Assembly (NCBI GenBank): GCA_965200295.1 | Contig: OZ241347.1 | Coordinates: 3,390,093 to 3,454,092, forward strand | Source of the DNA: Gammaproteobacteria bacterium | GTDB lineage: Bacteria; Pseudomonadota; Gammaproteobacteria; Eutrophobiales; Eutrophobiaceae | Direction of reading: 5' to 3' | Length of the DNA: 64,000 nucleotides | Shown here: in pieces, positions 6,049-64,000 of the stretch | How the letters are laid out: each line of letters begins with the position of its first letter | Numbering within the stretch: position 1 is the stretch's first letter | Program-made: the position numbers and the translations under genes | Notes under the pieces: model-generated | The model's input: the letters and a program-made list of their open reading frames with translations, nothing else | Database searches by the model: none | What the model was told of the DNA's origin: nothing

Positions 6049-7095
6049 ATGAGAATCGCCATTGTTACCGATGCCTGGAAACCCCAGGTCAACGGTGTCG
6101 CCGTCACTTATGAAAACCTGGGGCGGCAACTGGAGTTGCTGGGGCATGAGCTGCGTTACATCGCCCCCGAGGAATTCAGGACCATGCCCTGCCCCAGCTA
6201 TCCCAGCATCAGGCTGGCTATCTTCCCGCGCCTGCGGATTGCCAAAAAACTGCGGGAGTTTGCCCCGCAGGCCATCCATGTTGCCACCGAAGGCCCGCTG
6301 GGACATGCGGCGCGCAGTTATTGCCTCAGCCACGGGCTGCCGTTCACCACATCCTTTCATACGCAATTTCCCGAATATATCCGTCTGCGCGCGCCGGTGC
6401 CCGTGCGCTGGTCATACACTTACCTGAGACGCTTTCATGGGCCGGCGCGACACACCTTTGTGCCCACGGAATCGCAACGGAACAAGTTGCTGGGGAAAGG
6501 TTTTGACAACATTGTCGTCGTCTCTCGCGGCGTCGATACCAGGCTGTTCAAACCGGCTGCAAAGTCCTTCCTGGACGGCCCGCGCCCGATCTTTTTATAC
6601 ATGGGGCGCGTGGCGTTGGAAAAAAACATCGAAGCCTTCCTGCAACTGGACCTGCCGGGCAGCAAGGCGGTTGTCGGTGACGGCCCGGATCTGGAGCGAC
6701 TGCGACAACAATACCCGGCAGTGTTGTTTACCGGCTTCAAATTCGGCGCCGAGTTAAGCCGGCATCTTGCCGCCGCCGATGTGTTCGTCTTTCCCAGCCT
6801 GACCGATACGTTCGGCATTGTGCTGTTAGAGGCAATGGCTTGCGGCCTGCCCGTCGCCGCCTACCCGGTCACCGGCCCCATAGATGTGGTCAGGAACGGC
6901 GTCACCGGTGTGCTCGATGACGACCTTGGCAAAGCCGCGCGGGCCGCGCTGGCGCTGGACCCGGCGGCCTGCACGGCACACGCCCGACAATACTCGTGGA
7001 AAGCCTGTGCACAAGTGTTCCTCGAATACCTGGCGCGCATCTCACCGGGGCGGGAGCCTTCCTGTCTGTTGGCTTCCTGGTCAAGCCTGCCCTGA
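6049..7095 (+). CDS. glycosyltransferase, GT4/GT1 family
   Basis: 348 aa; N-terminal MRIAIVTDAWKPQVNGVA and C-terminal E..E retaining-GT motif region (FVFPSLTDTFGIVLLEAMACGLPV). Confidence 0.7.
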   Translation: MRIAIVTDAWKPQVNGVAVTYENLGRQLELLGHELRYIAPEEFRTMPCPSYPSIRLAIFPRLRIAKKLREFAPQAIHVATEGPLGHAARSYCLSHGLPFTTSFHTQFPEYIRLRAPVPVRWSYTYLRRFHGPARHTFVPTESQRNKLLGKGFDNIVVVSRGVDTRLFKPAAKSFLDGPRPIFLYMGRVALEKNIEAFLQLDLPGSKAVVGDGPDLERLRQQYPAVLFTGFKFGAELSRHLAAADVFVFPSLTDTFGIVLLEAMACGLPVAAYPVTGPIDVVRNGVTGVLDDDLGKAARAALALDPAACTAHARQYSWKACAQVFLEYLARISPGREPSCLLASWSSLP

Positions 7096-46294: not shown

Positions 46295-46675
46295 TCACAG
46301 TTCCTTCACAAACTCCAGGTAAACGTCTTCATCCATAAACTGCTCCAGTTCGCCCACATCATCGGGCACTATTCTGAAAAACCAGCCGCTGTTCATGGGG
46401 TCGAAATTGACTGCTTCGGGCTTGTCTGCCAGGGCGCCATTCACCGCCAGCACTTCGCCGTTGATGGCCGCCTTGATCTCGCCGGCGGCCTTGACCGATT
46501 CGATGACCGCGGCGTCACTGCCGGCGCTTAGAATTTCACCGGCGTTGGGTAACTCGACATAGACTACATCACCAAGCTGCTCCTGGGCATAATCGGTGAT
46601 GCCGACCGTCACTGACCCGTCATCTTCCAGCCGCAGCCACTCGTGCTCTTCGGTAAACTTGACAGTACTGCTCAT
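46295..46675 (-). CDS. gcvH: glycine cleavage system protein H
   Basis: 126 aa; lipoyl-Lys motif region ESVKAAGEIKA and typical GcvH ends. Confidence 0.9.
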   Translation of the reverse strand: MSSTVKFTEEHEWLRLEDDGSVTVGITDYAQEQLGDVVYVELPNAGEILSAGSDAAVIESVKAAGEIKAAINGEVLAVNGALADKPEAVNFDPMNSGWFFRIVPDDVGELEQFMDEDVYLEFVKEL

Positions 46676-46896
46676 TTGCGAAAAATCTCCTCGTTGAACT
46701 GTGTTACAGGCGCCTCTAATTTTTAGAGGTTACTTTATGAGAACCTCTGATTTTCAGAGGCGCTTTTTTTCGCTATTTTGACGTATAACCCTGGTAGATA
46801 CAATATTAAAACGGGCTCAGCCCAGCTGACAAGGCAGTTCAATTTGCTGTAGCATAGCGTTAAATGAAAAAATGCCACAAAGTCAGAGGTGACAAG

Positions 46897-47103
46897 ATGA
46901 TTACAGATACCATCACACTTGCAGAAAAGCTGGAATCCTCCGGATTAGATACAGCGCCGGCCAAAAGAATTGCCAAAGCGATTCATGAACATCAATCTGA
47001 GCATTTTGCCACAAAAGCGGACTTGGCAGAGTTAAAAATTTCGTTGATGATCGGGAACGCCGTGCTTGCGGGGCCGGTTGTAGCTCTGATTAAACTTATC
47101 TGA
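46897..47103 (+). CDS. small DUF1640-like protein
   Basis: Start at MITDTITL. FATKADLAELKISLMIGNAVLAGPVVALIKLI tail resembles the DUF1640 C-terminus. Confidence 0.4.
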   Translation: MITDTITLAEKLESSGLDTAPAKRIAKAIHEHQSEHFATKADLAELKISLMIGNAVLAGPVVALIKLI

Positions 47104-48541: not shown

Positions 48542-50584
48542 TCAGGCATTACCGTCAAGCCGACCTCCATGCCCCCGCAAAAACACTTCCACATCCGCTA
48601 ACTCCCTGGTATGTCCCATCTTCGGCAGGCTGTTCAGGAACGTCCTGCCGTAGGGCTTGGTGGTCAGCCTGGGGTCGCCGACCATCAGGATGCCGTAGTC
48701 GTTGCGGTCGCGGATCAGGCGGCCGATGCCTTGTTTCAGGGTCAGCACCGCTTCGGGGACCTGGTATTCCAGGAACGGGTTGCGGCCCTGCTCCTGCATG
48801 CGGGTCAGTCGGGCGCTCATGACCGGGTCGCCGGGGGACGCGAACGGCAATTTGTCGATGATCACGCAGGACAGCGCCTGGCCGCGCACGTCCACGCCTT
48901 CCCAGAAGCTGCTGGCACCCAGCAATACCGCATGAGGGGTGGTCCTGAAGGTTTCCAACAGTTCGGTGCGCGGCGCCTCGCCCTGCACCAGGATGGGGTA
49001 AGCCAATGCCACACCTATCAGTTCGGCAGCTTCCCGTAGCGCCCGGTGGCTGGTGAACAGGAAAAACGCCCGCCCCTCGGTAAGGCGCAGTAGCGGGATG
49101 GCTGTTGCCACCAGGCGTGCGGTGAAATTTTGGGATCTGGGCTCGGGCAGACCCCGGGGCAGGTATAACAGGGACTGAGCCGCGAAGTCAAACGGGCTCT
49201 GCCAGCCGCGCGCCGGCGCCTGCTCCAGCCCCAGTCGCGCGGAAAAATAGTCAAACCGTTGCGCCACGCTCAGGGTGGCCGAGGTAAACACGTTTACGCA
49301 CTTAAGTCCCTCCATGCGCGCGCGGAATATGTCGGCCACATCCAACGGGGTCTGGTGCAGGTAAAAATGCCTGCCGCGCACTTCCAGCCAGTGGATATGG
49401 TTTGCCTGTGCGCCCTCTGCGGGCAAGGCCTCAGACTCCGGCAATAACGCCCCCTGTTCCTCAGCCGCTAGCGCGTCTGGCGAAGACGTGTCCTCTGCGC
49501 TCGATGGCGCCGGGGCCGCGCGCGCTGCAAACCGCCCCAACAATGCCAGCGCGGCGCCAGCCCGCTTGCAGCAGTTATCCAGCGACTTGCCTCTACCGGC
49601 AAAGTCTGACAACACCTTGCGCACTTCGGTCAGCTTCGTCACCAGCGCCGTCAGCGTCGCCGCGACTTCTGTCCGCTCTTTCACCCCGGCCCAGGCCAAG
49701 CGGCTATCCTCTCTGGGCAAGGCCAGTCGCAGGTCGCGCGCCGCCTTGTCCAACCCGTCCAGCAGCGCCGGGAAATCCGGCAGATCTGCCGCTTCCTCAA
49801 AATACGCCGCCCGGGAGTCGGCCACCAGCTCCAGCAGTTGGCGGCTGCTCAAGGTCTCGCTGAAAAACTGTGACGCCAGTTCCGGTAACTGGTGCGCCTC
49901 ATCGAAGATCGCCACCTCGACAGACGGCAGCAACTCGCCGTAACCGGCCTCCTTGAGCACCATATCGGCTAAGAACAGGTGGTGGTTGACCACGGCCAGA
50001 TCCGCGTCCACGGCGCGGCGGCGGGCGCGGAACACGAAACAGTCGTCGTAGAAATCGCACTCCTGGTTCAGGCAGTTATCCGTAGTGGAAACACAGGCTG
50101 TGCGCACCGCTGAGTCTTCCGGGATGTGGGTCAACTCGGCCAGGTCACCGCTGTCCGTGCGCTGTGACCAGGCGCGGATATCGGCCAGATAGCTGCGCGC
50201 CTGCCGGTCGAGCCGGCGCCCATCCAGCTCTGTCAGTTGCAACCGGTGCCGGCACAGGTAATTCGCCCGCCCCTTGAGCAACGCCACCTTGAGCGCCCGC
50301 CCCACGGCCTTGCGTACCAGCGGCAGGTCGCGGCTGAACAACTGGTCCTGCAGGTGTTTGGTGCCGGTGGAGATGATCACCTTGTGACCGGACTGCAACG
50401 CCGGCACCAGATAGGCAAACGTCTTGCCGGTGCCGGTGCCAGCCTCGCAGATCAGCGTTTCTCCGGCGTCAATCGCCGCGCCGATGGCCTCGGCCATTTC
50501 CACCTGCTGTGGCCTGACGGAGTAGTCATCGATTAACTCTGCAAGAAGCCCTTGCGCGCCAAGAATGTCGGCTGGCGTTTGCAT
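48542..50584 (-). CDS. yoaA: ATP-dependent DNA helicase YoaA (DinG family)
   Basis: 680 aa; EAGTGTGKTFAYL Walker A, DEAH box (IFDEAHQLP), Fe-S Cys region (NCLNQECDFYDDCF), C-terminal helicase motifs. Collinear with E. coli YoaA. Confidence 0.85.
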   Translation of the reverse strand: MQTPADILGAQGLLAELIDDYSVRPQQVEMAEAIGAAIDAGETLICEAGTGTGKTFAYLVPALQSGHKVIISTGTKHLQDQLFSRDLPLVRKAVGRALKVALLKGRANYLCRHRLQLTELDGRRLDRQARSYLADIRAWSQRTDSGDLAELTHIPEDSAVRTACVSTTDNCLNQECDFYDDCFVFRARRRAVDADLAVVNHHLFLADMVLKEAGYGELLPSVEVAIFDEAHQLPELASQFFSETLSSRQLLELVADSRAAYFEEAADLPDFPALLDGLDKAARDLRLALPREDSRLAWAGVKERTEVAATLTALVTKLTEVRKVLSDFAGRGKSLDNCCKRAGAALALLGRFAARAAPAPSSAEDTSSPDALAAEEQGALLPESEALPAEGAQANHIHWLEVRGRHFYLHQTPLDVADIFRARMEGLKCVNVFTSATLSVAQRFDYFSARLGLEQAPARGWQSPFDFAAQSLLYLPRGLPEPRSQNFTARLVATAIPLLRLTEGRAFFLFTSHRALREAAELIGVALAYPILVQGEAPRTELLETFRTTPHAVLLGASSFWEGVDVRGQALSCVIIDKLPFASPGDPVMSARLTRMQEQGRNPFLEYQVPEAVLTLKQGIGRLIRDRNDYGILMVGDPRLTTKPYGRTFLNSLPKMGHTRELADVEVFLRGHGGRLDGNA

Positions 50585-50647
50585 GTGCTGGTTATAAAAT
50601 CCTTTCGCAGAGATGGTGACACTTTGCGTGTTTTTGACTTGCCATGC

Positions 50648-53600
50648 TCAGGCCGGCCCGGGCGCAGTGCAATCTACCGCGCATACGGAAATCTTTTTTC
50701 GTTGTTCATCACTATCGAGCAGCCGGCTTAACCGTTCTTCGAGTTCTCTCGGCGTTCCGGGTTTGGGGCCACCTGCGGGAGGTGGCGTGGTCTTTTCATG
50801 TCCGAACCAGAATACCAGATATATGCCGTAGCCGTATGCCCCGGGATCTATACTGTAGCGCTCGATCAGTTGCCTCCTGAGGCCATGCCAAAGGTCTTTG
50901 CTGTCATTGCATTTGATCTCGATGGGGACGTTATAGCTGCCAAATGAAACCCGGATATCTGCCCGTCCTTCATCGGCATAGCGCCCTTCAGGCTGCGCGT
51001 CGACTTGCATTTTTTTGAGAAGTGGTTTGATATCTGACAGAAACTGATCGCGACAGGTTTCTTCATGTCGGCGAGTGACGGGATATTCTTTCCAGTATTG
51101 TCGAAAATCATTCGTGTTTTCATATTTTATTCTTTCAGCTAATTCCTGAATGCGCTCGTGCGTTATGCAGGCCAGGTCGGCAACATTTGCCGGAGGGCCG
51201 TTATTCAGGGCAGAATGCACCTGCTCCAGGTCGGCATGTCTGAACCTGGCCTCACGTTTGGCGGCGCGTTGGGCATGCAGTGTCCGTCTTAACCAGGGAT
51301 GCCATTTTGACAGTTGGTCTGATCCAAGCAGAGATTCAATTGCGTCAGTACCTTCGTCTTCCAAGGAAGTTGCCAGTCGGGAAATCAGTTGCATGACTAC
51401 CTCTGATGCATCATCTGACGTCGAAACAGGCGCATGATAAGGGCCCAGCAGCTCCACCAGTAGCGACACCCCTGATAGGGGCAACTTGTCAACAGGCTGC
51501 CATTGCTTACCGCGGTAAGACAGGAATCCGCCCAAATAACTCATGCGCGCTTCTTTTACTGAGATAAATTCAATCAGTTGTTGAGCGAATTGTTCCGGTG
51601 CAAGAATGATACCGGCAGCCAGCCATAGTGTGCGCTGTGCAGCATCCATACTTTTCAAAGAGAGCTTTTTCCTGGTTAATTGTTTAAGGTCGTTGCGGTC
51701 TGCATGTTGCAGCGCAGCTGCTAACAGATCATAAAGTGGGACGAGCTGTTTTGAGGTACTGCGTACCCGAAAACTTTTCAGCAACGGCAGCACCACAAGG
51801 GCGGCCAGTTGACGGTGATTTTCATCAAAAGCAAGAGAGTAACTGCCGGCAAGATGCGTCTTGCCGGCCCGCAATGCCATTTTGCCATACATGGTATAAA
51901 TCCTGACCAGAAGCTCAGGGCGCTTGCGTAATATGGCTTTGTACCATCCGGTTTTTTCTGTCCCATCGGCCAAATGGAAAGCCAGCGCTTTTTCGAGTTT
52001 ATCCTGTTCCAGTTCCAGCAATGTTCGTAAAGCGCCTTTGGCTAACTCATCTATCCCAGCCCGATAAGTATGGGAATAAATGGAATGTTTACCATCCACA
52101 TGCGCTTGCAGGATTTCTTTCGAGTCCGGTATGTCTTCCCGATAGATGAAGCGTTGCAAGCCACTTAACATGCTCTGAACCAGGCCAATATCGTTATTGA
52201 AAAAGTGCATCAGCCTTGCGCGCGGATTATCACCTCTCGCCTCGATAAAATAGCCATAATAGGCTGAGGCTAGCTTGCTGAATAGCGCGGGTTTTGCCGT
52301 GCCCGCTTCAATCTCTCTTAAGTTATTCCGCACATATTGCAGGAAGGCCTGTTTGGCCTGTTCTTTCTCATTCCCGAAGCGTTTACGCGCACGGTTGGAT
52401 TGGCCGTACTCGGGACTGATTTCCGCTACGCGGTTTACGTTCCAATACTGTTTGAGGCAACTATCCCTTGCCACAGCTTCTTCTACCAGTTCCAGAGACA
52501 TGCCGGTATTTCCGTTTTCTGCAAACAGAGTTGAGATACTTTCTGAAAAAAAATATTTACGGATGTTTTGATCATCACCAGCCATAGCCTTATGCAGACA
52601 CCAACGGCCATAGTCTTCCGGAAAATCCGCATTAAACAACCGCTCGCTGATTCTGGAAACACACCAGTTGAAGTTGTCTGACTTGCTGCATTGGTGCAGC
52701 CGACATTCAACCAGCTGCTTTTGAATTTCCGGGTGTTGCTGCAACCATTTTCTAATGCGCGTGGCATCCTGGTGCGAAAGTAAAATCGAGTCATACTCAT
52801 CAAGCCCCAGCCCCAGCCAGCCCAGCAGTCTTGTCGTTTCCACACCGGCGCCGTATTTTTCAACGCCCCTCACCAGCAAATTGCCGACCATAGTCCGATA
52901 AGTATATTCATCAGAACCGTGCCGCGACTGCGCCGGTATTGTTACGAAGGCATCCAGCAGCGGAGGAATCTGACCATCACTGGACAGTTTGGTTAATTCA
53001 TAGCTCCAGAAGTAGTCATAGATACCGATGTAATCAGTTCGTTTGGGTGATCGAAGGTAATTGAATATTTCATCAGGTGAGATTTGATTCGGATATTGAG
53101 AGAGCAGCAATTGTCCCAGGAGTTCGTCTTCCGGGTCAGAGATGATACCTTGCCAGACATCCTCCAGAATTTTCTGCAGCGCTTGTTGATCATTGAAACG
53201 GACCAATACCTGCAGTGCCTGCCTTCGGTTCCACAACTGGTAATCAGGATCCTTAAGCAAGCTGAGCAGGGCGTCTGATAATCCCGGCAGCGCTTTGCCA
53301 GCGGTCATGGACGCCAGCACATACGCAAGCAGGTATTGATGCGTATCACTGTGGTCACGGGATTTAAGAATACTTAGATATTCTTGCTCCATATCAGTCT
53401 GACAAAGAGCGCCGAAAGGCTGTGTGTTCCGATAATCAATGCCGATATTCCCTGCTTTTTCGGCATGGTTGCTCAACTCGTGCAACAGTTTAAGGCGGCC
53501 TTCTTTACTGAACAGACTGACATCGCCGTACAAAACCACTCCGAGCGGGTCGCGTTGCATCAGTTTATCCCGCTCAGTATGGCAAAGTGCAGCAATCCAG

Positions 53601-54661
53601 GCATAAATACCGCGTAACCCGGAAACTATTCCACCATCGGCTCCCGTTATGAGAGCTAACACCCGTCCGACTGGCAATGCCTCTTGAACGATTTTATTCG
53701 ATAAATAATAAGCGCTCAGGTATTCCGCAAAAATACGGTGGCTGTATTCAGAGTGTCCATCATGCGTTGCGAACAATCGTGTTTTTGCCACCCGTTGCAG
53801 TAGCGCCGGGTCACCATCTGCCATATCCCCTACGAAGGGATAATCATCGTTTGCGTTTGACCGCATTGACGCGAAACCCGGTTTGTGCGCCAGGAGCATC
53901 ACCGCGCAAAGCATACCGGATGCCTGCATAAGTTGTTCAGCGGGAGGAGTTTGATTACGGTGAGCAATATTATGAGTTTGATTCCATTCTTCCAGCAACA
54001 ATCTTTCGCAGGCCAACCTGAAAACATCTGCTTTTCTTTCAGGCCACTGGCTTCCTCCGCCCACGGCTACAACCAGCATTTCCAGGATTTGCGGGTTTTT
54101 GATTAACTCAATAAGTCCCCGGTGTTGTGCCTCTTGCAGGAATGAAGACGCATCAGACTCTGTTTTATGGTGATTGTCGATAAGGACTTGTAGTAAGTCT
54201 TCCTCTGTAAGCTCAGCCAGGAACAATTCTTTAGGCTGCTCAGGTGACACCTTCGTTAATTCTTCCCTATCGCTTGCGCCGTACCAGTCCGCTGCGCGAC
54301 AGGAGAGGCGAAACCTTGGCCGTTCAAGTTGAGCCAGTTTTTTACGAATTTCGTCGAAGGGAGATAATGCATTATCTTTTCCCGCCCTGACTTCGTCCAA
54401 GCCATCGATAAAGAGGGTATTAGCGCGCCAATCAGAGTTGACATCGAAAGTAATAAAGTCCCTGGCACTGACGTATGCACAGCCATCTTGTTTTGCCTCT
54501 TCCTTGAAGGCCGTAGTCTTCCCGCTGCCTGGCTGTCCCAGTAGCACGTATGCCGGACACTTCCGGTAAGACGATAACTCCCCTGACTTTCGAATTTCCG
54601 GCCCCGCGCTGTCTTTGACGAACTCATAGCACCTCCTCGGCGCATAATAATTCAGACTCAT
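50648..54661 (-). CDS. NACHT-type STAND NTPase with long alpha-helical repeat region and C-terminal PD-(D/E)xK-like module
   Basis: Walker A VLLGQPGSGKTT, NACHT Walker B LFIDGLDEV, NPQILEML helix; about 1,000 aa helical region; C-terminal ADIRVSFGSYNVPIEIKC (D...ExK). Start ATG overlaps the upstream gene's stop (ATGA). AT-rich relative to flanks. Confidence 0.65.
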   Translation of the reverse strand: MSLNYYAPRRCYEFVKDSAGPEIRKSGELSSYRKCPAYVLLGQPGSGKTTAFKEEAKQDGCAYVSARDFITFDVNSDWRANTLFIDGLDEVRAGKDNALSPFDEIRKKLAQLERPRFRLSCRAADWYGASDREELTKVSPEQPKELFLAELTEEDLLQVLIDNHHKTESDASSFLQEAQHRGLIELIKNPQILEMLVVAVGGGSQWPERKADVFRLACERLLLEEWNQTHNIAHRNQTPPAEQLMQASGMLCAVMLLAHKPGFASMRSNANDDYPFVGDMADGDPALLQRVAKTRLFATHDGHSEYSHRIFAEYLSAYYLSNKIVQEALPVGRVLALITGADGGIVSGLRGIYAWIAALCHTERDKLMQRDPLGVVLYGDVSLFSKEGRLKLLHELSNHAEKAGNIGIDYRNTQPFGALCQTDMEQEYLSILKSRDHSDTHQYLLAYVLASMTAGKALPGLSDALLSLLKDPDYQLWNRRQALQVLVRFNDQQALQKILEDVWQGIISDPEDELLGQLLLSQYPNQISPDEIFNYLRSPKRTDYIGIYDYFWSYELTKLSSDGQIPPLLDAFVTIPAQSRHGSDEYTYRTMVGNLLVRGVEKYGAGVETTRLLGWLGLGLDEYDSILLSHQDATRIRKWLQQHPEIQKQLVECRLHQCSKSDNFNWCVSRISERLFNADFPEDYGRWCLHKAMAGDDQNIRKYFFSESISTLFAENGNTGMSLELVEEAVARDSCLKQYWNVNRVAEISPEYGQSNRARKRFGNEKEQAKQAFLQYVRNNLREIEAGTAKPALFSKLASAYYGYFIEARGDNPRARLMHFFNNDIGLVQSMLSGLQRFIYREDIPDSKEILQAHVDGKHSIYSHTYRAGIDELAKGALRTLLELEQDKLEKALAFHLADGTEKTGWYKAILRKRPELLVRIYTMYGKMALRAGKTHLAGSYSLAFDENHRQLAALVVLPLLKSFRVRSTSKQLVPLYDLLAAALQHADRNDLKQLTRKKLSLKSMDAAQRTLWLAAGIILAPEQFAQQLIEFISVKEARMSYLGGFLSYRGKQWQPVDKLPLSGVSLLVELLGPYHAPVSTSDDASEVVMQLISRLATSLEDEGTDAIESLLGSDQLSKWHPWLRRTLHAQRAAKREARFRHADLEQVHSALNNGPPANVADLACITHERIQELAERIKYENTNDFRQYWKEYPVTRRHEETCRDQFLSDIKPLLKKMQVDAQPEGRYADEGRADIRVSFGSYNVPIEIKCNDSKDLWHGLRRQLIERYSIDPGAYGYGIYLVFWFGHEKTTPPPAGGPKPGTPRELEERLSRLLDSDEQRKKISVCAVDCTAPGPA

Positions 54662-55983
54662 CTGAACCACTCTTTCGGGTCAGTCAACAAAAAAATGTCC
54701 AGCGGCACACCTTGGGCGCCCACTAAAACCTCATTGTGTGGCTTGAACTGCCGGGAAAAACTGTCCAGCCCGCGACGGGTTACTTTGCTGCTTGCGGACT
54801 TTACCTCTATGGCGACAACTCGATTCCCCTTGACCAAAATAAAATCCACTTCATCATGTCCATGCCGCCAGTAGTAGAGCCTGCAATCCGGGATGCTGTG
54901 GTTGTAAAGGTGCGCGCCTACGGCGCTTTCTACCAATCGCCCCCAGTAGCTGCGGTCTCCCTGTGCCTCCTCAAACGAATAGCCTGACGCTGCGCTCATC
55001 AATGCCGTATTGAGCACATTGAGTTTAGGGCTGGAGGAACGCCGACGCTGTGGTTGATTGGCATATTTTTCCAACCCTGCCAACAATCCTGCCTGGGTCA
55101 GCAAATCCAGGTAATGCGCAAGTGTTGTGGTATTGCCCGCGCCTTGGAGTTGTCCCAGCATCTTGTTGTAGGACAACTCCTGTCCTGAATAATGACACCC
55201 CAGATCGAACAGGTTTTTCAACAACATCTTCTTGTCAACCCGGGTCATCATGAAAATATCTTTTCTGATATTCGGCTCGATTAACGAATCCCGCACGTAG
55301 CTTGCCCAACGCTGTTGATCGTGAATGTACCGGATACTGCCGGGATAGCCGCCATAATAAATATACTGCAGCAGGTCGATGTCAAAGGCGCCATTCATTT
55401 CCTCAAATGACCAATGCGCCATACGCAGCAGCTCAAAGCGGCCGGCCAGACTTTCCGTCAGACCTTGTTGCACCAGCAGGGGCGCAGAGCCCAGTAAAAC
55501 GACATGCATGGGCCTTTCCAGGGCGCGGTCGGCATCCCACAGACCTTTCACCGTCTCCGACCAGTTCTTGATCTTCTGTATCTCGTCCAGTACCAGAACG
55601 AAATTTCGTTGAGCTTCTGCCTGATTTAGAGGACCAGGGCGCAGGGTTAATTCATCAGCGGCGATACGCGCCTTTTCCCAATTCTTTACCAACCAGGCCA
55701 CATCGTATTCCACCACTCCTGAAGCGATAGCCTCGTCGGTATCATGCAGAGACGGATAAAGCGCTGGCAGAACCGGCTTACCTATATCATGGTAGTGGTA
55801 GTATGCAGACGGATAGTGCGCCGACAAGGCTCGTCTGACCAGAGTTGTTTTACCAACCTGACGTGGGCCGGCAACGATAATTATCCGGCTGACCGGTTCT
55901 CGAAGCCTGTCTATTAACGTTTTTGCATGTATCCGTTGATACGCCATAAACGCTATTTTACACCATTGAGTAAAATTACTCAA
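54658..55983 (-). CDS. COG1373-type AAA+ ATPase with C-terminal DUF4143/PD-(D/E)xK domain
   Basis: Walker A AGPRQVGKTTL, Walker B VLVLDEIQ, C-terminal HGHDEVDFILV...AIEVK. Alternative start MAYQRIH at 55947. Confidence 0.75.
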   Translation of the reverse strand: MSNFTQWCKIAFMAYQRIHAKTLIDRLREPVSRIIIVAGPRQVGKTTLVRRALSAHYPSAYYHYHDIGKPVLPALYPSLHDTDEAIASGVVEYDVAWLVKNWEKARIAADELTLRPGPLNQAEAQRNFVLVLDEIQKIKNWSETVKGLWDADRALERPMHVVLLGSAPLLVQQGLTESLAGRFELLRMAHWSFEEMNGAFDIDLLQYIYYGGYPGSIRYIHDQQRWASYVRDSLIEPNIRKDIFMMTRVDKKMLLKNLFDLGCHYSGQELSYNKMLGQLQGAGNTTTLAHYLDLLTQAGLLAGLEKYANQPQRRRSSSPKLNVLNTALMSAASGYSFEEAQGDRSYWGRLVESAVGAHLYNHSIPDCRLYYWRHGHDEVDFILVKGNRVVAIEVKSASSKVTRRGLDSFSRQFKPHNEVLVGAQGVPLDIFLLTDPKEWFR

Positions 55984-56092
55984 TGGTGTAAATAATCTTG
56001 GCCGTTCCCGCTAAATAGTATCAGGCAACCACTAAAATACTCTCCGTGGCATTTTTAGAGGCACCCATCGGGCATCGCAATGGCATATTGCT

Positions 56093-56662
56093 TCAGCTTT
56101 TCACCCGACTCACATATTCCCCCGTGCGGGTGTCCACCTTGATCTTTTCTCCCTGCTCTACGAACAGGGGCACCTTGACGGTGGCGCCGGTTTCCAGGGT
56201 GGCGGGTTTGGCGCCGCCAGAGGCGGTGTCGCCGCGGACGCCGGGGTCGGTTTCGGTAATGGTCAGTTCAACGAAGTTGGGGGCTTGCACGGACAGCGGG
56301 GCGCCGTTCCACAGGGTTATCCCGCACAGCTCCTCGCCGGTCAACCACTGCTCGGCAGCGCCCAGCGCCGTGCGGCCCACCTCGAACTGTTCGTAGGTGT
56401 TCAGATCCATGAAGTACCAGAGTTCGCCGTCGTTATAGAGATACTGCAATTCTGCGTCAATCACGTCCGCGGCGGGCACGCTCTCCCCGGACTTGCAGGT
56501 CTTGTCCAGCACCCGACCGGTCTTCAGGTTGCGGATTTTGATACGCGTAAACGCCTGCCCCTTACCCGGCTTGACGAACTCGCTGTCAAGTATGATGCAA
56601 GGGTCACCGTCAATAAGTAATTTCAGGCCCGGCCTGAATTCGTTGGTGCTGTGGTTGACCAT
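56093..56662 (-). CDS. efp: elongation factor P
   Basis: Start at MVNHSTNEF. 189 aa collinear with EF-P, including the KPGKGQAF loop carrying the modified Lys. Confidence 0.9.
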
Positions 56663-56669
56663 AAGTTCT

Positions 56670-58919
56670 TCAATCCGGTTGGATGGCTGAGACCTGTCGA
56701 TACCCCCGCGGCAGGACATTGCCGCGCCGGCCGCGCTCGTTATGATAATGGCTCCAGTCCTTCGGTTTCAAGGTCAGGTGGCGTTTGCCGGCTTGCAGGC
56801 GCAGCTTGTCCTTGGGACCGAGTGCGGTGACACCGGTCAGGTACTCGTCCCGGTTTTTCAAGTGTGCCGGCGGGATTTGCATGATCTTCACGCCTTTGCC
56901 CCGCGCCAGTTGCGGGAACCCGGTCAGGTCTGTCACCAGCAGGCGTCCTGCGGAACTGACGGCAGCCACCAGGCCCTGCTGCGGGTCGGGCACCGGCGCC
57001 GGGGGCAGGATCAGCGCCGGGGGCGTCACGTTCAGTGCGCTCTTGCCGGCCTTGTTCTTCACATACAGGTCACCGAGCCGGACGACAAACCCGTAGCCGG
57101 CGTCGGTGGCCAGGAAGTAGCGGGCGTCCGCCTCACCGAGCATCACGCCGACCATGGCGGCGCCGTCCGGTGGCGTTATCCAACTCGATACCGGCTCACC
57201 GTGGCTGCGCGCCGAGGGCAACAGGTGGGACGGTACGGCATAACAACGGCCGGTGGAATCCAGGAACACCGCCAACTGGTTGCTGCGCCCCATGGCGGCC
57301 TGCCGGAAACCGTCGCCGGCCCGGTAATTAAGGGTCTGCGGGTCGATATCATGGCCTTTGGCAGCCCGCACCCAGCCCTTCTCCGACAATATCACCGTCA
57401 CCGGCTCGGTGGGCAGCAGGCGCGCCTCAGCCATGGCCCGGGCCTCTGCGCGCTGTGCCAGCGGCGCGCGGCGGGCATCGCCGTACTGCTCCATATCGGC
57501 CCGAATTTCCTCTTTCACCAGCTTCTTTAAGCGCGCGCTTGCAGCGAGCACCTGTTGCAGCGACGCGCGCTCGCGCTCCAATTCATCCAATTCACCGCGT
57601 ATTTTAATCTCCTCCAGCTTCGCCAAGCGCCGCAGCCGCAGGTCGAGGATGGCTTCGGCCTGGGTCTCGGACAACTCAAAGCGCTCCATCAATTCCTGCC
57701 GGGGATGATCTTCTTCACGAATGATGCGGATTACCTCGTCGATGTTCAGGTACGCCACCATCAGCCCTGCCAACACATGGATGCGCTGTTGCACCTGTTC
57801 CAACCGATGTTGCAAACGCCGCCGCACCGTTTCCGTGCGGTACTGTAACCACTCGCTAAGAATGGTCTTTAAGTCCTTGACCTGGGGTCGCCCGTTGGCG
57901 CCGATCATGTTCAGGTTGACCCGGTAACTGCGTTCCAGGTCGGTGGTGGCAAACAGGTGCGACATCAGTTCGGCAAGGTTGACCCGGTTCGAACGCGGGA
58001 CCAACACCAGCCGGGTGGGGTTTTCATGGTCGGATTCATCGCGCAGGTCTTCCAGCATGGGCAGTTTCTTCGCCTGCATCTGCGCCGCCACCTGTTCCAT
58101 GATGCGGTTGCCAGAGGTCTGGTACGGCAGCGCAGTGACGATTGCGTTGCCGCCCTCCTGCTCCCAGCGCGCCCGCAGTTTCACGGAACCGTTACCGCTG
58201 CGATACAGCGCCAGCAGTTCCGTCGCAGGGGTGATGATCTCGGCCTCGGTGGGAAAGTCCGGCCCCTTGACGTAGTCGAACAACTCCTCCAACGTGGTTG
58301 CGGGCTGCTCCAGCAAACGGATGCAGGCGCCGGCCACCTCGGTCAGGTTGTGCGGCGGAATATCCGTCGCCATGCCCACGGCAATGCCGGTGGCGCCGTT
58401 CAGCAGGATATTGGGCAGGCGCGCCGGCAGCAGCTTCGGCTCCTTCAAGGTGCCGTCGAAATTGGGTATCCAGTCCACGGTGCCCTGCCCCAGTTCCGCC
58501 AGCAAGGTCTGGCTGTAGGGTCGGAGCTTGGCCTCCGTGTAGCGCATCGCTGCAAACGACTTGGGGTCGTCGGTAGAGCCCCAGTTGCCCTGGCCGTCAA
58601 TGATGGGATAGCGGTAACTGAACGCCTGCGCCATGAGCACCATGGCCTCGTAACAGGCGCTGTCCCCATGCGGATGAAACTTGCCGATGACATCGCCCAC
58701 CGTGCGCGCCGACTTCTTGAACTTGGCGGTCGCGCTCAGCCCCAGTTCCGACATGGCATAGATGATGCGCCGCTGCACCGGCTTCAAACCATCGCCGATA
58801 TGCGGCAAGGCCCGATCCAGGATGACGTACATGGAATAGTCCAGATACGCCCGCTCGGTAAACTCGTACAGGGGCTGGGCTTCCCTGTGTTCAAACTCCA
58901 GGCTTAGATTTTCCTGCAT
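56670..58919 (-). CDS. parC: DNA topoisomerase IV subunit A
   Basis: 749 aa; collinear with E. coli ParC including the active-site region (AAMRYTE), and ParC-length rather than GyrA-length. Confidence 0.9.
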
Positions 58920-58967: not shown

Positions 58968-59249
58968 CTACTTACCCAGCCTGGACAGCTTCTTGTCGAT
59001 CTCTTCTGAAATGTACTTGGATTGAGCGGCAAACTGGGCTGCCATGTTCTTATTGGTCGTCTCAATGCTTTGCTCCATTGAGCCCATCCTCTGGTTCATT
59101 GAACCCATTTCTTGCTCGATCCGATCTATTCTATACCCCAGCCCATCGATCTTTTTATACAACGGACTGACAGCTTCCACAATAACATCCCGGAAAGCAT
59201 AAGCCAGCGTTTCCACGCTACCGTTAAGTTTATCGTTAGTCATTTCCAA
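58968..59249 (-). CDS. small coiled-coil hypothetical protein
   Basis: 93-aa ORF next to the IS630 element. No recognisable motif. Confidence 0.3.
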   Translation of the reverse strand: MEMTNDKLNGSVETLAYAFRDVIVEAVSPLYKKIDGLGYRIDRIEQEMGSMNQRMGSMEQSIETTNKNMAAQFAAQSKYISEEIDKKLSRLGK

Positions 59250-59255
59250 TTTCTC

Positions 59256-60338
59256 CTAGTGTGCTGTCCCGGAAATAACTGTGCATAATCTTTCTACTTT
59301 GTTGAGGATGGATTCAGCCGTGGCAGTCCACACGAAAGGCCGGGTGTTGGCGTTGTAGTGATTCACAAACTGCTTGATTTTGCTGATGAGTTGTTTGACT
59401 GAGGAGAAAGACCCTCGCCGGATAGCTTTTTGTGTGATGAGTCCAAACCAGCGTTCCACCTGATTGAGCCATGAGGCATAGGTGGGGGTGTAATGCACAT
59501 GGTACCGGGGCCGTTGTGCCAGCCAGGCTTTGACCTTGGCATGTTTGTGGGTCGCATAATTGTCGATAATCAGGTGCACATCGAGGTCGGCGGGGACGTT
59601 GCGGTCGATATGCCGCAGGAAGGCCAGGAATTCCTGGTGTCGATGGCGTTTGCGACATTGGGTCATGACGCTGCCGGTGGCGACATCGAGGGCGGCAAAC
59701 AAGGTGGTGGTGCCATGGCGGATGTAGTCGTGGGTGACGCCCTCGACATAGCCCAGTCCCAGGGGCAACAACGGTTGCGTGCGTTCTAATGCCTGGATTT
59801 GGCTTTTCTCATCGACACACAGGACTACGGCGTGGTCGGGCGGGTTCAGGTACAGGCCAACGATATCGCGCACTTTCTCGATAAAGAACGGGTCGTTGGA
59901 CAGCTTGAAGGTGCGTTGTCGCTGGGGTTGTATGCCGAACAGGGTGAACCAGCGCTGCACGGTGCTTTTTGAGATGCCGGTCTGCTTGGCCAGGGTGCGC
60001 ACTGTCCAATGGGTGCTGCCGGCCGGTGTCGATTGCAGGGCGGTGTTGATGACCTCGGCCACCCGTTCATCGTCGTGGCGGCGCGGACGCCCGGCGCGTA
60101 GTTCGTCGTGCAAGCCTTCCAGACCGTGTTCGAGGTAGCGTTTGCGCCATTTGGCGACGGTGTTCTTGTTCAAACGCAAGCGTGCGGCGATGGCGCTGCC
60201 GGGTTCGCCTTCGGCGCAGGCCAGCACAATCTGGGCGCGTTGGACCAGGCCGTGGGGCAAGCTGCGTGATTGGGCGAGGCTAAGCAACTGCTTGTTTTCA
60301 TCCTGGTTGAGTACAATGGGGGGCGCAGTACGTGGCAT
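59256..60338 (-). CDS. IS630-family (Tc1/mariner-like) transposase
   Basis: HTH N-terminus and DDE core (VLCVDEKSQIQAL...LIIDNYATHK...WLNQVERWF). Confidence 0.85.
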   Translation of the reverse strand: MPRTAPPIVLNQDENKQLLSLAQSRSLPHGLVQRAQIVLACAEGEPGSAIAARLRLNKNTVAKWRKRYLEHGLEGLHDELRAGRPRRHDDERVAEVINTALQSTPAGSTHWTVRTLAKQTGISKSTVQRWFTLFGIQPQRQRTFKLSNDPFFIEKVRDIVGLYLNPPDHAVVLCVDEKSQIQALERTQPLLPLGLGYVEGVTHDYIRHGTTTLFAALDVATGSVMTQCRKRHRHQEFLAFLRHIDRNVPADLDVHLIIDNYATHKHAKVKAWLAQRPRYHVHYTPTYASWLNQVERWFGLITQKAIRRGSFSSVKQLISKIKQFVNHYNANTRPFVWTATAESILNKVERLCTVISGTAH

Positions 60339-60400
60339 GAGATGTTCTCCGGTGAGTGGGCTCATGCTTATAGTACCATTTATTTATGGGACAGTACACT
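59259..60400. mobile_element. IS630-family insertion sequence with imperfect terminal inverted repeats and TA target duplication
   Basis: Left end tagtgtgctgtcccggaaataa, right end reverse-complement tagtgtactgtcccataaataa. TA at 59257-58 and 60401-02. Confidence 0.7.
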
Positions 60401-60482
60401 AGTTAATATGTTCCAAACAACAGGCGCAATATAGACATGATTTGAGTGCTGGTCAAGGAGAATTTCCGACAGTGAAATAGTG

Positions 60483-60511
60483 TTGACACCCCTGGCAACG
60501 AGTGGTAGCTT
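60483..60511 (+). promoter_or_regulatory. sigma70-like promoter (TTGACA-17-TAGCTT) with a conserved ~75-nt leader, duplicated in inverse orientation at ~46205-46234
   Basis: The promoter and the leader down to the SD are nearly identical upstream of both DUF1640-like paralogs. Confidence 0.4.
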
Positions 60512-60589
60512 GACCCTCAAAGGACGGGAGTGAAAAGGCTTTCCGACCTGGAACGAAACAGATAATAACCATTAACGGAGGTATCCCGA

Positions 60590-61057
60590 ATGAGCAGTAC
60601 CGCCCTGTACAGAGCATTCATCGACGCTGGCGCGTCGGAAGAAAAGGCCACCCTGGCCGCAGAGGATGTTGTTCAAGTGTCCCAGCTACCACAACTGGCA
60701 ACGAAGTCTGACATGTTAGTCCTGGAGGCCAATATGGCAACCAAGGCTGACATTTCAGTCTTGGAGACCAACATGGCAACGAAGGCTGATATTTCAAATA
60801 TGGCCACGAAGGCCGACATTTCAGTTCTGGAGGCCAATATGGCAACCAAGGCTGATATTTCAAATATGGCCACGAAGGCTGATATTTCAGACATGGCAAC
60901 CAAATCAGATATTTCAGACTTGGAAGCCCGTATGGCAACAAAATCTGATATTTCGGTCAACTCGGCAAAACTGGAACTACGGATGATTAAATGGATAGTG
61001 GGCAGCGGTTTGATTTACACCAGTATTATTATCGCCGGTTTCAGTCTGCTCGCATAA
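60590..61057 (+). CDS. DUF1640-like coiled-coil repeat protein with C-terminal membrane anchor (paralog b)
   Basis: 155 aa; N-terminus identical to paralog a, with a different number and arrangement of 9/13-aa repeat units (KADISNMAT / KADISVLEANMAT) and a TM tail. Confidence 0.6.
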   Translation: MSSTALYRAFIDAGASEEKATLAAEDVVQVSQLPQLATKSDMLVLEANMATKADISVLETNMATKADISNMATKADISVLEANMATKADISNMATKADISDMATKSDISDLEARMATKSDISVNSAKLELRMIKWIVGSGLIYTSIIIAGFSLLA

Positions 61058-61155
61058 CCAACCCGGTCGGCACGACAAGCCATAAACCTTGTTGGACCCA
61101 GGGAAAGGGGACGGGTTTTAAGCCGTCCCCGGTTGGGTTTGGGGGTGGGTGATCT

Positions 61156-64000
61156 TTACATTAGTACGAAGTCGCCCACGACTATGGCTGAGTCGAAGAT
61201 GGTAATCGTGCCGCCACCTTCATAGCTAGTTAGATCGATGACGATAATGCCATTTTCTGCCTCCGGTATAGTGACGGAACCAATTAATGCTTCGCCCGCA
61301 TCATTTTTGAAAGCGCTTAGGTCAATCTTATCTCTAGTTGTCTCAAAGTCCATGATGTAATCATCTCCATGACCTGGTTCAAAGACGAACCTATCATCAC
61401 CAGGGCCGCCGTCGAGCCAGTCGTTGCCGGCGCCGCCGTTGAGGGTGTCGTTGTCCTCGCCGCCGTAGATTTCATCGTCGCCGGCGCCGCCGTTGATGGT
61501 GTCCTTGCCGTCTTCTCCATAGAGGGTGTTGGCGCTGCTGGTGCCGTTGATCTCGTTGTTGAAACGGTCGCCGATGCTGCCGCTGATTTTCTTGGTGTAG
61601 AAGATGAAGTTGTCGGGGGTCAGGCCGTGGAAATCGTTATCGGTGTTATTGAATCCAGTCGGGGCGTTCAACCTGAGCTCGCCGCCGTTGGGCAGGTCGA
61701 TCTCAATATCACCTCCCCGGTCGGATATATCATCTTTCAGATCATCCATGGATGCGATAGAATTAAAGGCACTCAGGTCGATCTTGTCCTGGCCGCCAGT
61801 AATCGTAAATTGGTTGATCTCATCATCGCCGTCGCCAGAGGCAAACACGAAGGTATCACTCCCGGCGGCGCCAGTAAGGGTATCATCACCCCTGCCGCCG
61901 GTAATGGCACTACCTCCGCTGGCAGCGGTCAGGGTATCAGCGAAATTGGAACCGATGATATTGACAATGTTCTCTGCCAGTGTGTCTCCTGCGGCATAAC
62001 CACCTGTTTCATTAGCAGTGCCATCCAATGTTACCATGACACCCACATTAGACCTGATATAGGAGACGGTGTCCGACCCGTCGGCACCACCGTCGATATT
62101 ATCGGCGCTCCTGCCGGCGATGAAGGTGTCATCGTAACTTGAGCCTACGTACCGCTCTATATCTTCAAACGTATCACCGGCAGCATCACCCGTGCTGGCG
62201 TTGCCGCCGCTCAGGTCGAGGGTGATGCCGGCTGTGGCATTGGCGTAGGTGGCGATGTCTGCTGTCCCGGCGCCACCTTCCAGCTTATCTCTGCCGGGGC
62301 CGCCTTCCAGGGTATCATTTCCGCCACCGCCCTTGAGGGTGTCGTTGCCGCCCATTCCACGCAGCATGTTGGCTTCACTATTACCGGTCAGTGTGTCGGC
62401 GCCGCAGGAGCCGATGATATTATTAAAACCCGTTGCAATATCGCCGGTTGCATCGCCGCGGCTGACTTTGATGATGGCCAGAGATGCCGATCCGTCTCCA
62501 TTGAACCGAGTCACTTCAGCTGGAGTCAGGACTCGATTAGTGATGTCATTCAAATCCACGGTCACTGCGGAACCGGAGCCTTCATAGGACAAAAAGTCAC
62601 CGGGAGAACCGATAAGCCGGTCGCTTTGAGAGCCGCCCTCCACCTTACTATTGCCGCCGCCGGTGATTACGTCACTCCCACTGCCACCCTTGAGAGTATT
62701 CAGCATAATACCTTCGCTACTTCCGCCCCCCATTATGATGTCGTTGCCACTGCCGCCTTCGATGACGTTGGGTTGGGTATCACCGGTGAGCATGTCGTCG
62801 TAAGAACTACCGATGAGGTTTTCGAAATTAGCGCCTATCATGTCACCTTCTGCATAGGTGCCTCTGTTAGCGGCGACGTCAGCAGGACCCCCCCCCAGTG
62901 TTACTGTGACACCTTTATTTCTAATAATATTATTACCTTCGTCTCGAGCTTGAGGCGAACCCGCGTAAGACAGGGTATCTGTGCCGGCGCCGCCGTCCAG
63001 CGTATCACCGCCAGCCTGGCCGTTGATAACATCATCACCGCTGCCGCCATGTAAGCGGTCGTTACCATTGCCGCCGTTAATCCTGTCGTTACCAGCGCCG
63101 CCCCAGATGTAGTTGACACCCGAGGTGCCAGTGATGCTGTCATTGCCATCGTTGTTGAATCTGAAATTTGCTTCGTTGAGACCCGTGATGGCTGTGCCGA
63201 CATTTATCTCCTGGCTGCTGGAAATTCGGATTACATTCTCATTGGTGACATTGCCATCACCATCGACTTGTGCAGTGATATAAAAACCTCGACCAAAAGC
63301 GCTCAGGTCCAGAATGTCCCCGGTAGCTGTGGGGTCGAAACCTGTAATCGTATCGTCCCCGTCGCCGCGGGAAAATACGAAGGTATCGCGACCGCCGTCG
63401 CCAGTCAGCGTGTCATCGCCGCGGCCGCCTATGAGGGTATCATCCCCTTCACCACCGCTAATCATATCGTTACCACCGCGCCCCTCTATCACGTTAGCGC
63501 TACCATTACCGGTCAATACGTCATGGAAGCCATCGCCCGTACCATTAACTTTCGTCGCATCTGTACTGACATTGGTGCCGATGATATTCTCGAAGCCCAG
63601 CAGGGTATCTCCCGTTTCGTAGGGCTTGTAATTAGCGAGGGGCGGTGTTATGCCTAATGAACCGTTTCCAGTCTGGGTATTGGTGTCAACATCAGTGTTA
63701 GGTATATCCACTACAACCGCAGCTCTGGTAGAGCGCTCATAAGAAATCGTGTCTGTCCCACCGCCGCCGGTGATATAGTCCGGATTAGGCCCGGCGTAAA
63801 AGAAGTCGTCGTGGTTTGAGCCGACAAAGCGCTCGATGTCGATAAAGGTATCGCCCCGGGCATCGCCCTGGCCGCTGCTGTTGCGGATGGTGATGACGCC
63901 GTTGCTTTCCGAAACCGAACTCAAGTCCACAGTGACGCCTGCGGCAGCGTTTGCGTAGGTGACAATATCGAAGCCGTCGTCGGCGGCTTCATCGTCACCG
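61156..64000 (-). CDS. giant RTX-type Ca2+-binding repeat protein, 3' part (gene continues beyond the window end)
   Basis: At least 924 aa of GGxGxDxL repeats. The last ~160 codons are ~95% identical at DNA level to the 3' end of the gene at 35626..40116 on the opposite strand. Confidence 0.8.
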   Translation of the reverse strand, partial: GDDEAADDGFDIVTYANAAAGVTVDLSSVSESNGVITIRNSSGQGDARGDTFIDIERFVGSNHDDFFYAGPNPDYITGGGGTDTISYERSTRAAVVVDIPNTDVDTNTQTGNGSLGITPPLANYKPYETGDTLLGFENIIGTNVSTDATKVNGTGDGFHDVLTGNGSANVIEGRGGNDMISGGEGDDTLIGGRGDDTLTGDGGRDTFVFSRGDGDDTITGFDPTATGDILDLSAFGRGFYITAQVDGDGNVTNENVIRISSSQEINVGTAITGLNEANFRFNNDGNDSITGTSGVNYIWGGAGNDRINGGNGNDRLHGGSGDDVINGQAGGDTLDGGAGTDTLSYAGSPQARDEGNNIIRNKGVTVTLGGGPADVAANRGTYAEGDMIGANFENLIGSSYDDMLTGDTQPNVIEGGSGNDIIMGGGSSEGIMLNTLKGGSGSDVITGGGNSKVEGGSQSDRLIGSPGDFLSYEGSGSAVTVDLNDITNRVLTPAEVTRFNGDGSASLAIIKVSRGDATGDIATGFNNIIGSCGADTLTGNSEANMLRGMGGNDTLKGGGGNDTLEGGPGRDKLEGGAGTADIATYANATAGITLDLSGGNASTGDAAGDTFEDIERYVGSSYDDTFIAGRSADNIDGGADGSDTVSYIRSNVGVMVTLDGTANETGGYAAGDTLAENIVNIIGSNFADTLTAASGGSAITGGRGDDTLTGAAGSDTFVFASGDGDDEINQFTITGGQDKIDLSAFNSIASMDDLKDDISDRGGDIEIDLPNGGELRLNAPTGFNNTDNDFHGLTPDNFIFYTKKISGSIGDRFNNEINGTSSANTLYGEDGKDTINGGAGDDEIYGGEDNDTLNGGAGNDWLDGGPGDDRFVFEPGHGDDYIMDFETTRDKIDLSAFKNDAGEALIGSVTIPEAENGIIVIDLTSYEGGGTITIFDSAIVVGDFVLM

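Follow-up and report, generated by a model that had tools for sequence, protein, structure and literature searches.

In a 64,000-nucleotide stretch of a gammaproteobacterial genome (contig OZ241347.1 of assembly GCA_965200295.1; hereafter the window), the minus strand at 50648-55992 carries two long open reading frames (ORFs), as given in the ORF listing of the window. The first, gene A, encodes an ATPase of the COG1373 type, and it is followed by gene B, which encodes a large NACHT NTPase with a putative nuclease at its C terminus (Table 1). We interpret the pair as an NLR-like antiphage module of two translationally coupled genes that acts by abortive infection or DNA degradation, and would put the probability of this reading at roughly 60%. 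Because the same pair, with one conserved palindromic promoter in front, is found in many phyla, it likely represents a two-component form of a type of phage defence already known. The established part of the case comprises the domain identities, fold similarities, conserved catalytic residues, coupling, strict co-occurrence and promoter-like palindrome; the defence phenotype is suggested by homology to a family that NCBI labels antiphage. A sequence-only reading of the same DNA had already proposed a module of this general kind from its motifs. What is added here is that B falls in an already named, EruA-like family, that A belongs to the defence candidate PDC-S01, and that a conserved palindromic promoter stands before the operon.

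The family assignment of gene B comes from NCBIfam model NF058535 ("NACHT domain-containing antiphage protein EruA"), to which residues 28-1331 align collinearly in one stretch (model positions 17-1317 of 1318, E=3.3e-276). The two are alike in length and in architecture, with an N-terminal NACHT, a helical region and a C-terminal domain. The related HyoA model (NF058534) gives a weaker, partial match, and HyoA is the more distant relative. In total, 1932 homologues of gene B are detectable, almost all of them about 1350 amino acids (aa) long and carrying PF28130 (named DUF8371 in another tool). It should be noted that Pfam returned nothing significant for gene B: its NACHT model (PF05729) gave no match at E<=0.1, and only nSTAND_NTPase5 (0.067) and generic AAA models appeared. 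PADLOC likewise returned nothing for gene B, including no match to an Avs model. Searches for experimentally solved relatives of gene B or of its C terminus, by sequence and profile, found only P-loop matches, and a DNA search of E. coli genomes with the Pantoea plasmid homologue, looking for an EruA locus named by the Prokaryotic Genome Annotation Pipeline, found no match.

Gene B contains the motifs GQPGSGKTT (residues 41-49), LFIDGLDEV (83-91), NPQILEML (189-196) and EGRADIRVSFGSYNVPIEIKC. A D[GAS]hDE signature after Walker B defines the NACHT clade (Kibby et al., bioRxiv 10.1101/2022.07.19.500537), and the Walker B region of gene B, F84-I-D86-G-L-D89-E90, has this form, with D86, D89 and E90 invariant among 17 sequences. 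An AlphaFold2 (AF2) model of residues 1-640, built from the same number of sequences, has a predicted local distance difference test score (pLDDT) of 86 and shows the succession of nucleotide-binding, helical and winged-helix domains that is typical of the NLR NACHT fold; lower-ranked comparisons of this model include NB-ARC (10.4), NLRC4 (10.3), Avs5 (10.0) and Avs3 (8.5). The model thus supports placing the N terminus among the NACHT-clade STAND NTPases. This had been proposed from the motifs, and the signature, invariant or nearly so, and the match to an NCBIfam NACHT antiphage family bear it out.

Behind the NTPase lies a region that is predicted to be all-helical. The sequence-only reading had described about 1,000 aa of helical repeats here; the helical character stands, whereas the length does not, as the region spans about 865 aa (331-1195), of which only 331-640 and 1080-1195 were modelled. 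Those two parts consist of helices only, and Pfam finds a weak HEAT_2 match in the region. The nucleotide-binding and nuclease domains are the best conserved parts, at a median of 62% and 57% identity to the query, respectively, as against 35-43% in the middle helical region, whose low conservation is what one would expect of a presumed sensor.

The AF2 model of residues 1080-1337 (pLDDT 84) consists of a helical stalk followed by an alpha-beta-beta-beta-alpha-beta core. This core has the topology of the PD-(D/E)xK superfamily, with the D at the second strand and the (D/E)xK in the third, and E1225, D1235, E1248 and K1250 are invariant among gene B homologues. The model therefore supports a putative nuclease of this superfamily at the C terminus, where a nuclease-like tail had been suspected. 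A profile of the domain retrieves 1270 representatives of 50% clusters at E<=1e-30, nearly all of them at the C terminus of proteins of about 1350 aa. In a single case the domain was seen outside such a protein: an unverified phage-like contig from human faeces (MT835554.1, L087:2068-3306) has a 412-aa ORF that is homologous to the stalk and nuclease only (29% identity to residues 1084-1287, E=2e-16), so that this copy sits on a putative phage.

The order of the domains sets gene B apart from the best-described systems. Among bacterial NACHT antiphage proteins, effectors are N-terminal and sensors C-terminal, and one of them, bNACHT25, has an Mrr-like restriction endonuclease as its effector (Kibby et al., bioRxiv 10.1101/2022.07.19.500537). 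Gene B would share with the bNACHT proteins a presumed logic of sensing, oligomerizing and cutting DNA, but it departs from their usual effector-NACHT-sensor order, with its NACHT at about residue 30 and its nuclease at the extreme C terminus after the helical region. In addition, the bNACHT proteins are described as single genes, whereas gene B has an obligate ATPase partner. Avs proteins (Avs3/Avs4) also have N-terminal effectors; the claim that the arrangement differs from the canonical Avs one therefore holds, given a NACHT that begins near residue 30 and a nuclease at 1196-1337.

Gene A matches Pfam AAA_14 (residues 21-184, E=2.8e-22) and DUF4143 (229-384, E=4.6e-27), both above cut-offs, with weak matches to NERD and AHJR(-like) models at residues 351-404. 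It contains GPRQVGKTTL, VLDEIQ and HDEVDFILV...AIEVK. Its Walker A, Walker B and E366-x-D368...E381-x-K383 are conserved in 69 orthologues and invariant when compared with paralogues of only 22-27% identity. There is no NCBIfam family for gene A, and searches by sequence and profile for experimentally solved relatives of its family gave only generic P-loop matches. PADLOC model PDLC04791 (candidate PDC-S01) matches it over nearly the whole model (E=2.7e-161, positions 1-394 of 395). PDC-S01, an ATPase fused to a PD-(D/E)xK member, is reported to be the fourth most common defence candidate in prokaryotes, catalogued as single-gene and experimentally unvalidated (PMC12988326). The gene A protein matches this candidate in full length and in its AAA_14 plus DUF4143 architecture; where it differs is that its subfamily is bound to a NACHT gene by overlapping codons. 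In one conserved stretch, NTTTLAHYLDLLTQAGLL, we have the impression of a winged-helix recognition helix.

As had been stated, both ORFs are present on the minus strand, every quoted motif of both genes is found in the translations, and the overlap is read directly as ATGA at 54661-54658, which is indicative of translational coupling. The start of gene A had been set too far upstream, at TTG 55983. This candidate was rejected because it lies inside the palindrome described below and because orthologues begin at MAYQR; the true start is almost certainly ATG 55947 (MAYQR...).

Importantly, the pairing extends far beyond the window. A profile scan for gene B, limited to one genome per species, gave at least 517 relatives, from which 79 loci were kept. 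In 73 of these, gene A directly precedes gene B in the same orientation. Two of the six loci without gene A end at a contig edge, which leaves 77 informative loci (73 with gene A, four stand-alone). At the junction of A and B, 58 loci show a four-base overlap of the form NTGA and nine more show TGATG, so stop and start codons overlap in 67 of the 73. The hosts include Gamma-, Beta- and Alphaproteobacteria, Latescibacterota, Acidobacteriota, Nitrospirales, Spirochaetia, Binatia and others. Clustering of all ORFs from the 79 loci revealed no third recurrent gene, only A, B and antisense shadow ORFs. In the converse search, which started with gene A, none of the best 120 homologues falls below 56% identity, and each of three contigs looked up carries a DUF8371 gene of 1341-1349 aa that overlaps the gene A stop codon. 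Across the loci of the gene B scan, gene A (50-57% identity) is better conserved than gene B (34-37%), a pattern that fits a sensor-like evolution of B. The relative P0105 (1023 bits), which passes the EruA cut-off, occurs in locus L016 with gene A directly upstream. We conclude that A and B form one unit, and the expectation that the two genes would co-occur elsewhere is borne out. The gene A subfamily is also not single-gene in the sense of PDC-S01, given its position upstream of a NACHT gene.

These counts bear on the notion that two independent single-gene systems, a PDC-S01 and an EruA-like protein, are merely adjacent. Both families do occur alone, PDC-S01 being catalogued as single-gene and gene B having stand-alone homologues. 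Against this are the 73 of 77 loci, the 67 overlapping codon pairs, the three converse contigs, the lack of a promoter-like palindrome before B where A is present, and the presence of B in every case examined of the A subfamily (at least 56% identity). We regard chance adjacency as very improbable.

Directly upstream of gene A there is a perfect palindrome that overlaps a sigma-70-like promoter (Table 1). It is found once in the window, where no copy is expected by chance, and the gene A ATG follows the -10 element by 7 nucleotides (nt). In about 66 of the 70 loci that have gene A, a palindrome of 34-38 bp occupies this position. These palindromes have a near-invariant core, TGAGTAA-N2-TTACTCA, and conserved outer TTAC/GTAA, and the bases in between are variable yet symmetric: 83% of cells are paired, as against 34-41% when the partner column is slid, and double-change cells number 116 vs 45+-5 in shuffles. 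The left core provides a -35-like TTGAGT in 43/70 loci and the right end a -10-like TAnnnT in 48/70, after a 17-nt spacer, with the start codon 6-7 nt past the -10 in 43/70. Because of this geometry between the -10 and the start codon, the mRNA made from the palindromic promoter is predicted to be probably leaderless, or nearly so. As single-stranded DNA, the palindrome forms a hairpin of -15.5 kcal/mol (z -8.4). Rfam finds no family in the islet, only sub-threshold hairpin matches to microRNA models at the palindrome.

None of the seven stand-alone gene B loci that were inspected has the palindrome upstream. Of five unrelated COG1373 paralogues in the fetched loci, four have a palindrome of another sequence at the corresponding position; for these reasons, the element belongs with gene A. 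The paralogues in question are 22-27% identical to A, each with its palindrome directly before the start codon, at L004:16420-16540, L013:5590-5645, L010:12270-12340 and L054:14040-14115. That of L013 is TAATTTATGATATATAGAA-N7-TTCTATATATCATAAATTA, and that of L004 is AATCTATGTAAT-N19-ATTACATAGATT followed by TAAAAT. Promoter palindromes may, from this pattern, be a general feature of COG1373/PDC-S01 genes. We take the element to be a candidate operator for a dimeric protein encoded by the module, most plausibly A. Extra exact or near-exact copies of the core, ATTGAGTAA-NN-TTACTCAAT, were seen in genomes that carry the module (L036:13264-13283, L036:17561-17580 and L079:17296-17315); one of the L036 copies lies by an NYN-domain gene and the other by a 187-aa gene, and both have the right flank ATATATACACA.

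Table 1. Coordinates of the A-B module and of genes that adjoin it, in the window unless a locus is named
Feature	Position	Strand	Description
Gene A	54658..55947	-	429 aa; ATG 55947 to TGA 54658; COG1373-type AAA+ ATPase with PD-(D/E)xK-like core
Gene B	50648..54661	-	1337 aa; EruA-like, with putative NACHT, helical sensor region and PD-(D/E)xK nuclease
ATGA	54658..54661	-	Gene B start codon overlapping gene A stop codon; read directly
Gene A Walker A, GPRQVGKTT	55843..55869	-	Residues 27-35; kept in 69 orthologues
Gene A putative nuclease core, E366-V-D368...E381-V-K383	54799..54852	-	Invariant in orthologues and distant COG1373 paralogues
NACHT NTPase module (predicted)	53672..54574	-	Gene B residues ~30-330; AF2 model; invariant motifs
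Gene B Walker A, G42-T49	54515-54538	-	Motif residues invariant
Gene B Walker B/NACHT signature, D86-G-L-D-E90	54392-54406	-	Motif residues invariant
All-helical region (predicted)	51077..53671	-	Gene B residues 331-1195; presumed ligand sensor; least conserved part
PD-(D/E)xK (restriction-endonuclease-fold) domain, putative	50651..51076	-	Gene B residues 1196-1337
Gene B nuclease core, E1225, D1235, E1248-I-K1250	50912-50989	-	Invariant residues
Perfect palindrome, TTTACACCATTGAGTAA-TT-TTACTCAATGGTGTAAA (17+17)	55957..55992	-	Candidate operator; ten bases upstream of gene A start
Sigma-70-like promoter	-35 TTGAGT 55983-55978; -10 TAAAAT 55960-55955	-	Overlaps palindrome
EF-P (efp)	56093-56719		Flanking gene of the A-B islet
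Helicase_C_2/DEAD (DinG/YoaA-type) helicase	48542-50584		Other flank of the A-B islet
Type IIG neighbour	L033:13413-17432
Type IIG neighbour	L037:12254-16342
Type IIG neighbour	L079:12359-16453
Type IIG neighbour	L047:3275-6379
Type IIG-like neighbour	L077:12632-16744		N-terminal sequence similarity only
Type IIG-like neighbour	L083:11713-13254		Pfam N6_Mtase/Eco57I

The mechanism that we propose begins with the fast-evolving helical region of gene B, which would recognize an infection cue. The NACHT NTPase would then act as a nucleotide-dependent oligomerization switch, and oligomerization would assemble the C-terminal PD-(D/E)xK domains into an active DNase; for this activation step we argue by analogy with Avs and bNACHT proteins. 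Gene A would be produced at a constant ratio to B from one shared mRNA, which is probably leaderless, and would serve as the dedicated partner of B. Most likely it would bind the palindrome over the -35 and -10 elements and so repress the operon, and probably it would also associate with B, either to restrain it or to act as a second nuclease. Binding of the palindrome by A, a complex of A with B, and leaderless transcription are predictions of the scheme, and every role given to gene A is one that we infer. A wider proposition, possible but distinctly more tentative than the defence reading itself, is that this COG1373/PDC-S01 subfamily serves an NLR-like NACHT nuclease as its obligate helper and autoregulator, binding a co-inherited operator on a leaderless promoter and gating or complementing the sensor, so that the two make a sensor-plus-helper NTPase pair, and that promoter palindromes are general in COG1373 genes.

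The regulatory layout, and only that, resembles type II toxin-antitoxin operons, in which a four-nucleotide overlap and a palindromic operator over the promoter are also found; those operons encode a small antitoxin and toxin, whereas A-B consists of two large NTPase-nucleases, and binding of the palindrome by A is putative. The likeness leads to the main rival explanation, in which B alone is a complete defence protein and A is a brake in the toxin-antitoxin manner that represses its own promoter at the palindrome and holds the B nuclease inactive, with no part in sensing or killing. Stand-alone homologues of B with the same length and architecture agree with it, as do the upstream position of A, the overlap and the palindrome over the promoter, the fact that the palindrome accompanies A and not B, and, in locus L028, the palindrome-core copy that precedes a vapBC pair. 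Nevertheless, a pure repressor or antitoxin would have no need of the invariant Walker A and B motifs and ExD...ExK core of A, and A is a 429-aa ATPase from a family that is itself flagged as a defence candidate (PDC-S01). We consider this explanation unlikely, though it has clearly more in its favour than chance adjacency, a mobile element or a non-immune role, all of which are less likely.

Several observations weigh against our reading of A-B as a coupled antiphage module. First, gene B scores 920.1 bits against NF058535 and so misses the equivalog cut-off of 1000 bits. Second, the antiphage label is itself a description in the NCBIfam database, and a publication behind the EruA name was not found. 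Third, B homologues stand alone, both in the close family (4/77 loci) and on plasmids: distant homologues (24-30% identical) occur alone on Vibrio, Pantoea and Bradyrhizobium plasmids, and the one from Bradyrhizobium (1035 bits) is above the EruA cut-off. Because of these stand-alone homologues, B can presumably work without A. Fourth, the winged helix of gene A is putative, read from the pattern of residues. Fifth, mutual information between the variable operator positions and gene A residues is diffuse and forms no cluster in the putative recognition helix. Sixth, the symmetric changes in the palindrome can come from template-switch mutation instead of selection; as such mutation also yields symmetric drift, symmetry alone is no proof of selection for pairing. 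Finally, the nearest neighbours of A-B loci are mostly unrelated housekeeping genes, and because of this the surroundings are not a classical defence island.

A minority of the neighbours are defence genes, namely type IIG, II and III restriction enzymes, NERD-UvrD, SoFic, Ppl-like genes, other PDC-S01 and PDC-S24. Type IIG restriction-modification enzymes (DrmMI/Eco57I-like, ~1340-1370 aa) directly adjoin the A-B module in several unrelated genomes (Table 1); in L083, a small HTH_3 gene lies between the type IIG-like gene and the module.

In the window, the islet has a GC content of ~49-50% (0.476-0.544 across 50500-55999) vs 0.60-0.65 in the flanks, in agreement with the statement that it is AT-richer, and it lies between the genes for a DinG/YoaA-type helicase and EF-P, as had been noted, with parC (a topoisomerase IV/gyrase A-type gene) beyond efp. 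We rejected the idea of a recent integrase-mediated island because no tRNA genes were found in the window and no direct repeats were found bracketing the islet. The order parC-efp-A-B-helicase is also present in three related gammaproteobacterial assemblies or metagenome-assembled genomes (L003, L004 and L086), with flanking proteins 75-96%, A 77-87% and B 65-80% identical. Given this shared order, the islet has long been part of this lineage, even though its GC is low, and is not a private insertion of recent date. In L003, parC and efp are separated by an inserted 882-aa Ppl-like gene (L003:3138-5786; partial match to PADLOC Ppl, E=8.5e-39), whereas in the window these two ORFs abut with slight overlap. 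In this lineage, the parC-efp-helicase region appears to receive defence genes repeatedly. Elsewhere in the window, low GC was also seen at 44000-47000 (0.45-0.52) and 59000-61500 (0.47-0.53), compared with ~0.60-0.65 in housekeeping regions, and there is a 1496-aa ORF at 35626-40116 on the plus strand.

That the neighbours in the window act on DNA could suggest a non-immune role, as a STAND-type regulator or a DNA-repair factor working with the adjacent helicase, topoisomerase and EF-P genes. We give this very little credence: the neighbourhood is conserved only within one gammaproteobacterial lineage, the only output of B is a putative nuclease, with no DNA-binding output domain, and B is homologous to a family labelled antiphage.

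Across loci, the module averages three GC points below its flanks and is lower in 44 of 56, and IS66 transposases adjoin two loci. In two Nitrospirales genomes (L028 and L018), the module is bracketed by a 70-nt direct repeat, which may have been left by recombination or may hint at mobility. The copies in L028 (6618-6687 and 12379-12448) are 99% identical and 5761 nt apart. The repeat begins in a copy of the palindrome core, and the copy downstream forms the 5' region of a vapB-vapC pair; the canonical palindrome is retained at 6697-6731.

Such features invite the explanation that the whole is a selfish mobile module, moved or maintained by A (an AAA+ with a restriction-endonuclease fold, loosely like TniB/TnsC with TnsA) and the palindrome, with B as cargo. 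The lower GC, the IS66 transposases, the L028 repeat with its start in a palindrome-core copy, the extra palindrome copies in L036 and L079, a weak TniB match in A (E=0.0014) and a patchy distribution over many phyla, usually among unrelated housekeeping neighbours, would all fit. Nevertheless, the palindrome is at one end only, there are no terminal inverted repeats, no flanking repeats occur in the window, and the module contains no integrase or transposase. Moreover, four related genomes have it at the same chromosomal site, with divergence about equal to that of the neighbours, and the fixed distance from palindrome to start codon and the -35/-10 geometry fit a promoter. Mobility as the primary function is, in our view, improbable, less so than chance adjacency or a non-immune role.

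On the antiphage reading, A-B varies a known type of defence system by having two genes, and the support for this is good; B is EruA-like and just under the equivalog threshold. NCBIfam names no partner family for EruA; here the upstream COG1373 gene and the palindromic promoter belong to the unit. In the searchable literature, NCBIfam and PADLOC, we came across no account of the obligate pairing of this PDC-S01 subfamily with the NACHT gene, of its palindromic promoter or of the suggested COG1373-wide palindromes; the publication behind the EruA name was not retrieved, and a prior report of the pairing is possible. A 2026 STAND survey (PMC13581612) and DefensePredictor make no mention of COG1373, DUF4143, EruA, HyoA, Eru or Hyo. 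Full-text searches on the names EruA, HyoA, Eru and Hyo led only to an E. coli regulator of the SlyA type that is also called EruA but is unrelated, and nothing relevant was found in literature linking DUF4143, NACHT and phage.

NLR-like STAND proteins are a theme common to bacterial, plant and animal immunity, and the bacterial ones are mostly described as single polypeptides. If A turned out to be dispensable, the finding would shrink to another EruA-like NACHT gene with a regulator. As it stands, dozens of genomes across phyla have a NACHT nuclease tied to a second NTPase-nuclease by overlapping codons, which invites comparison with the sensor/helper NLR pairs of plants. The pairing gives one COG1373/PDC-S01 subfamily a concrete context and a testable role, and the conserved palindromic promoter, probably leaderless, offers a small and easily tested regulatory handle.

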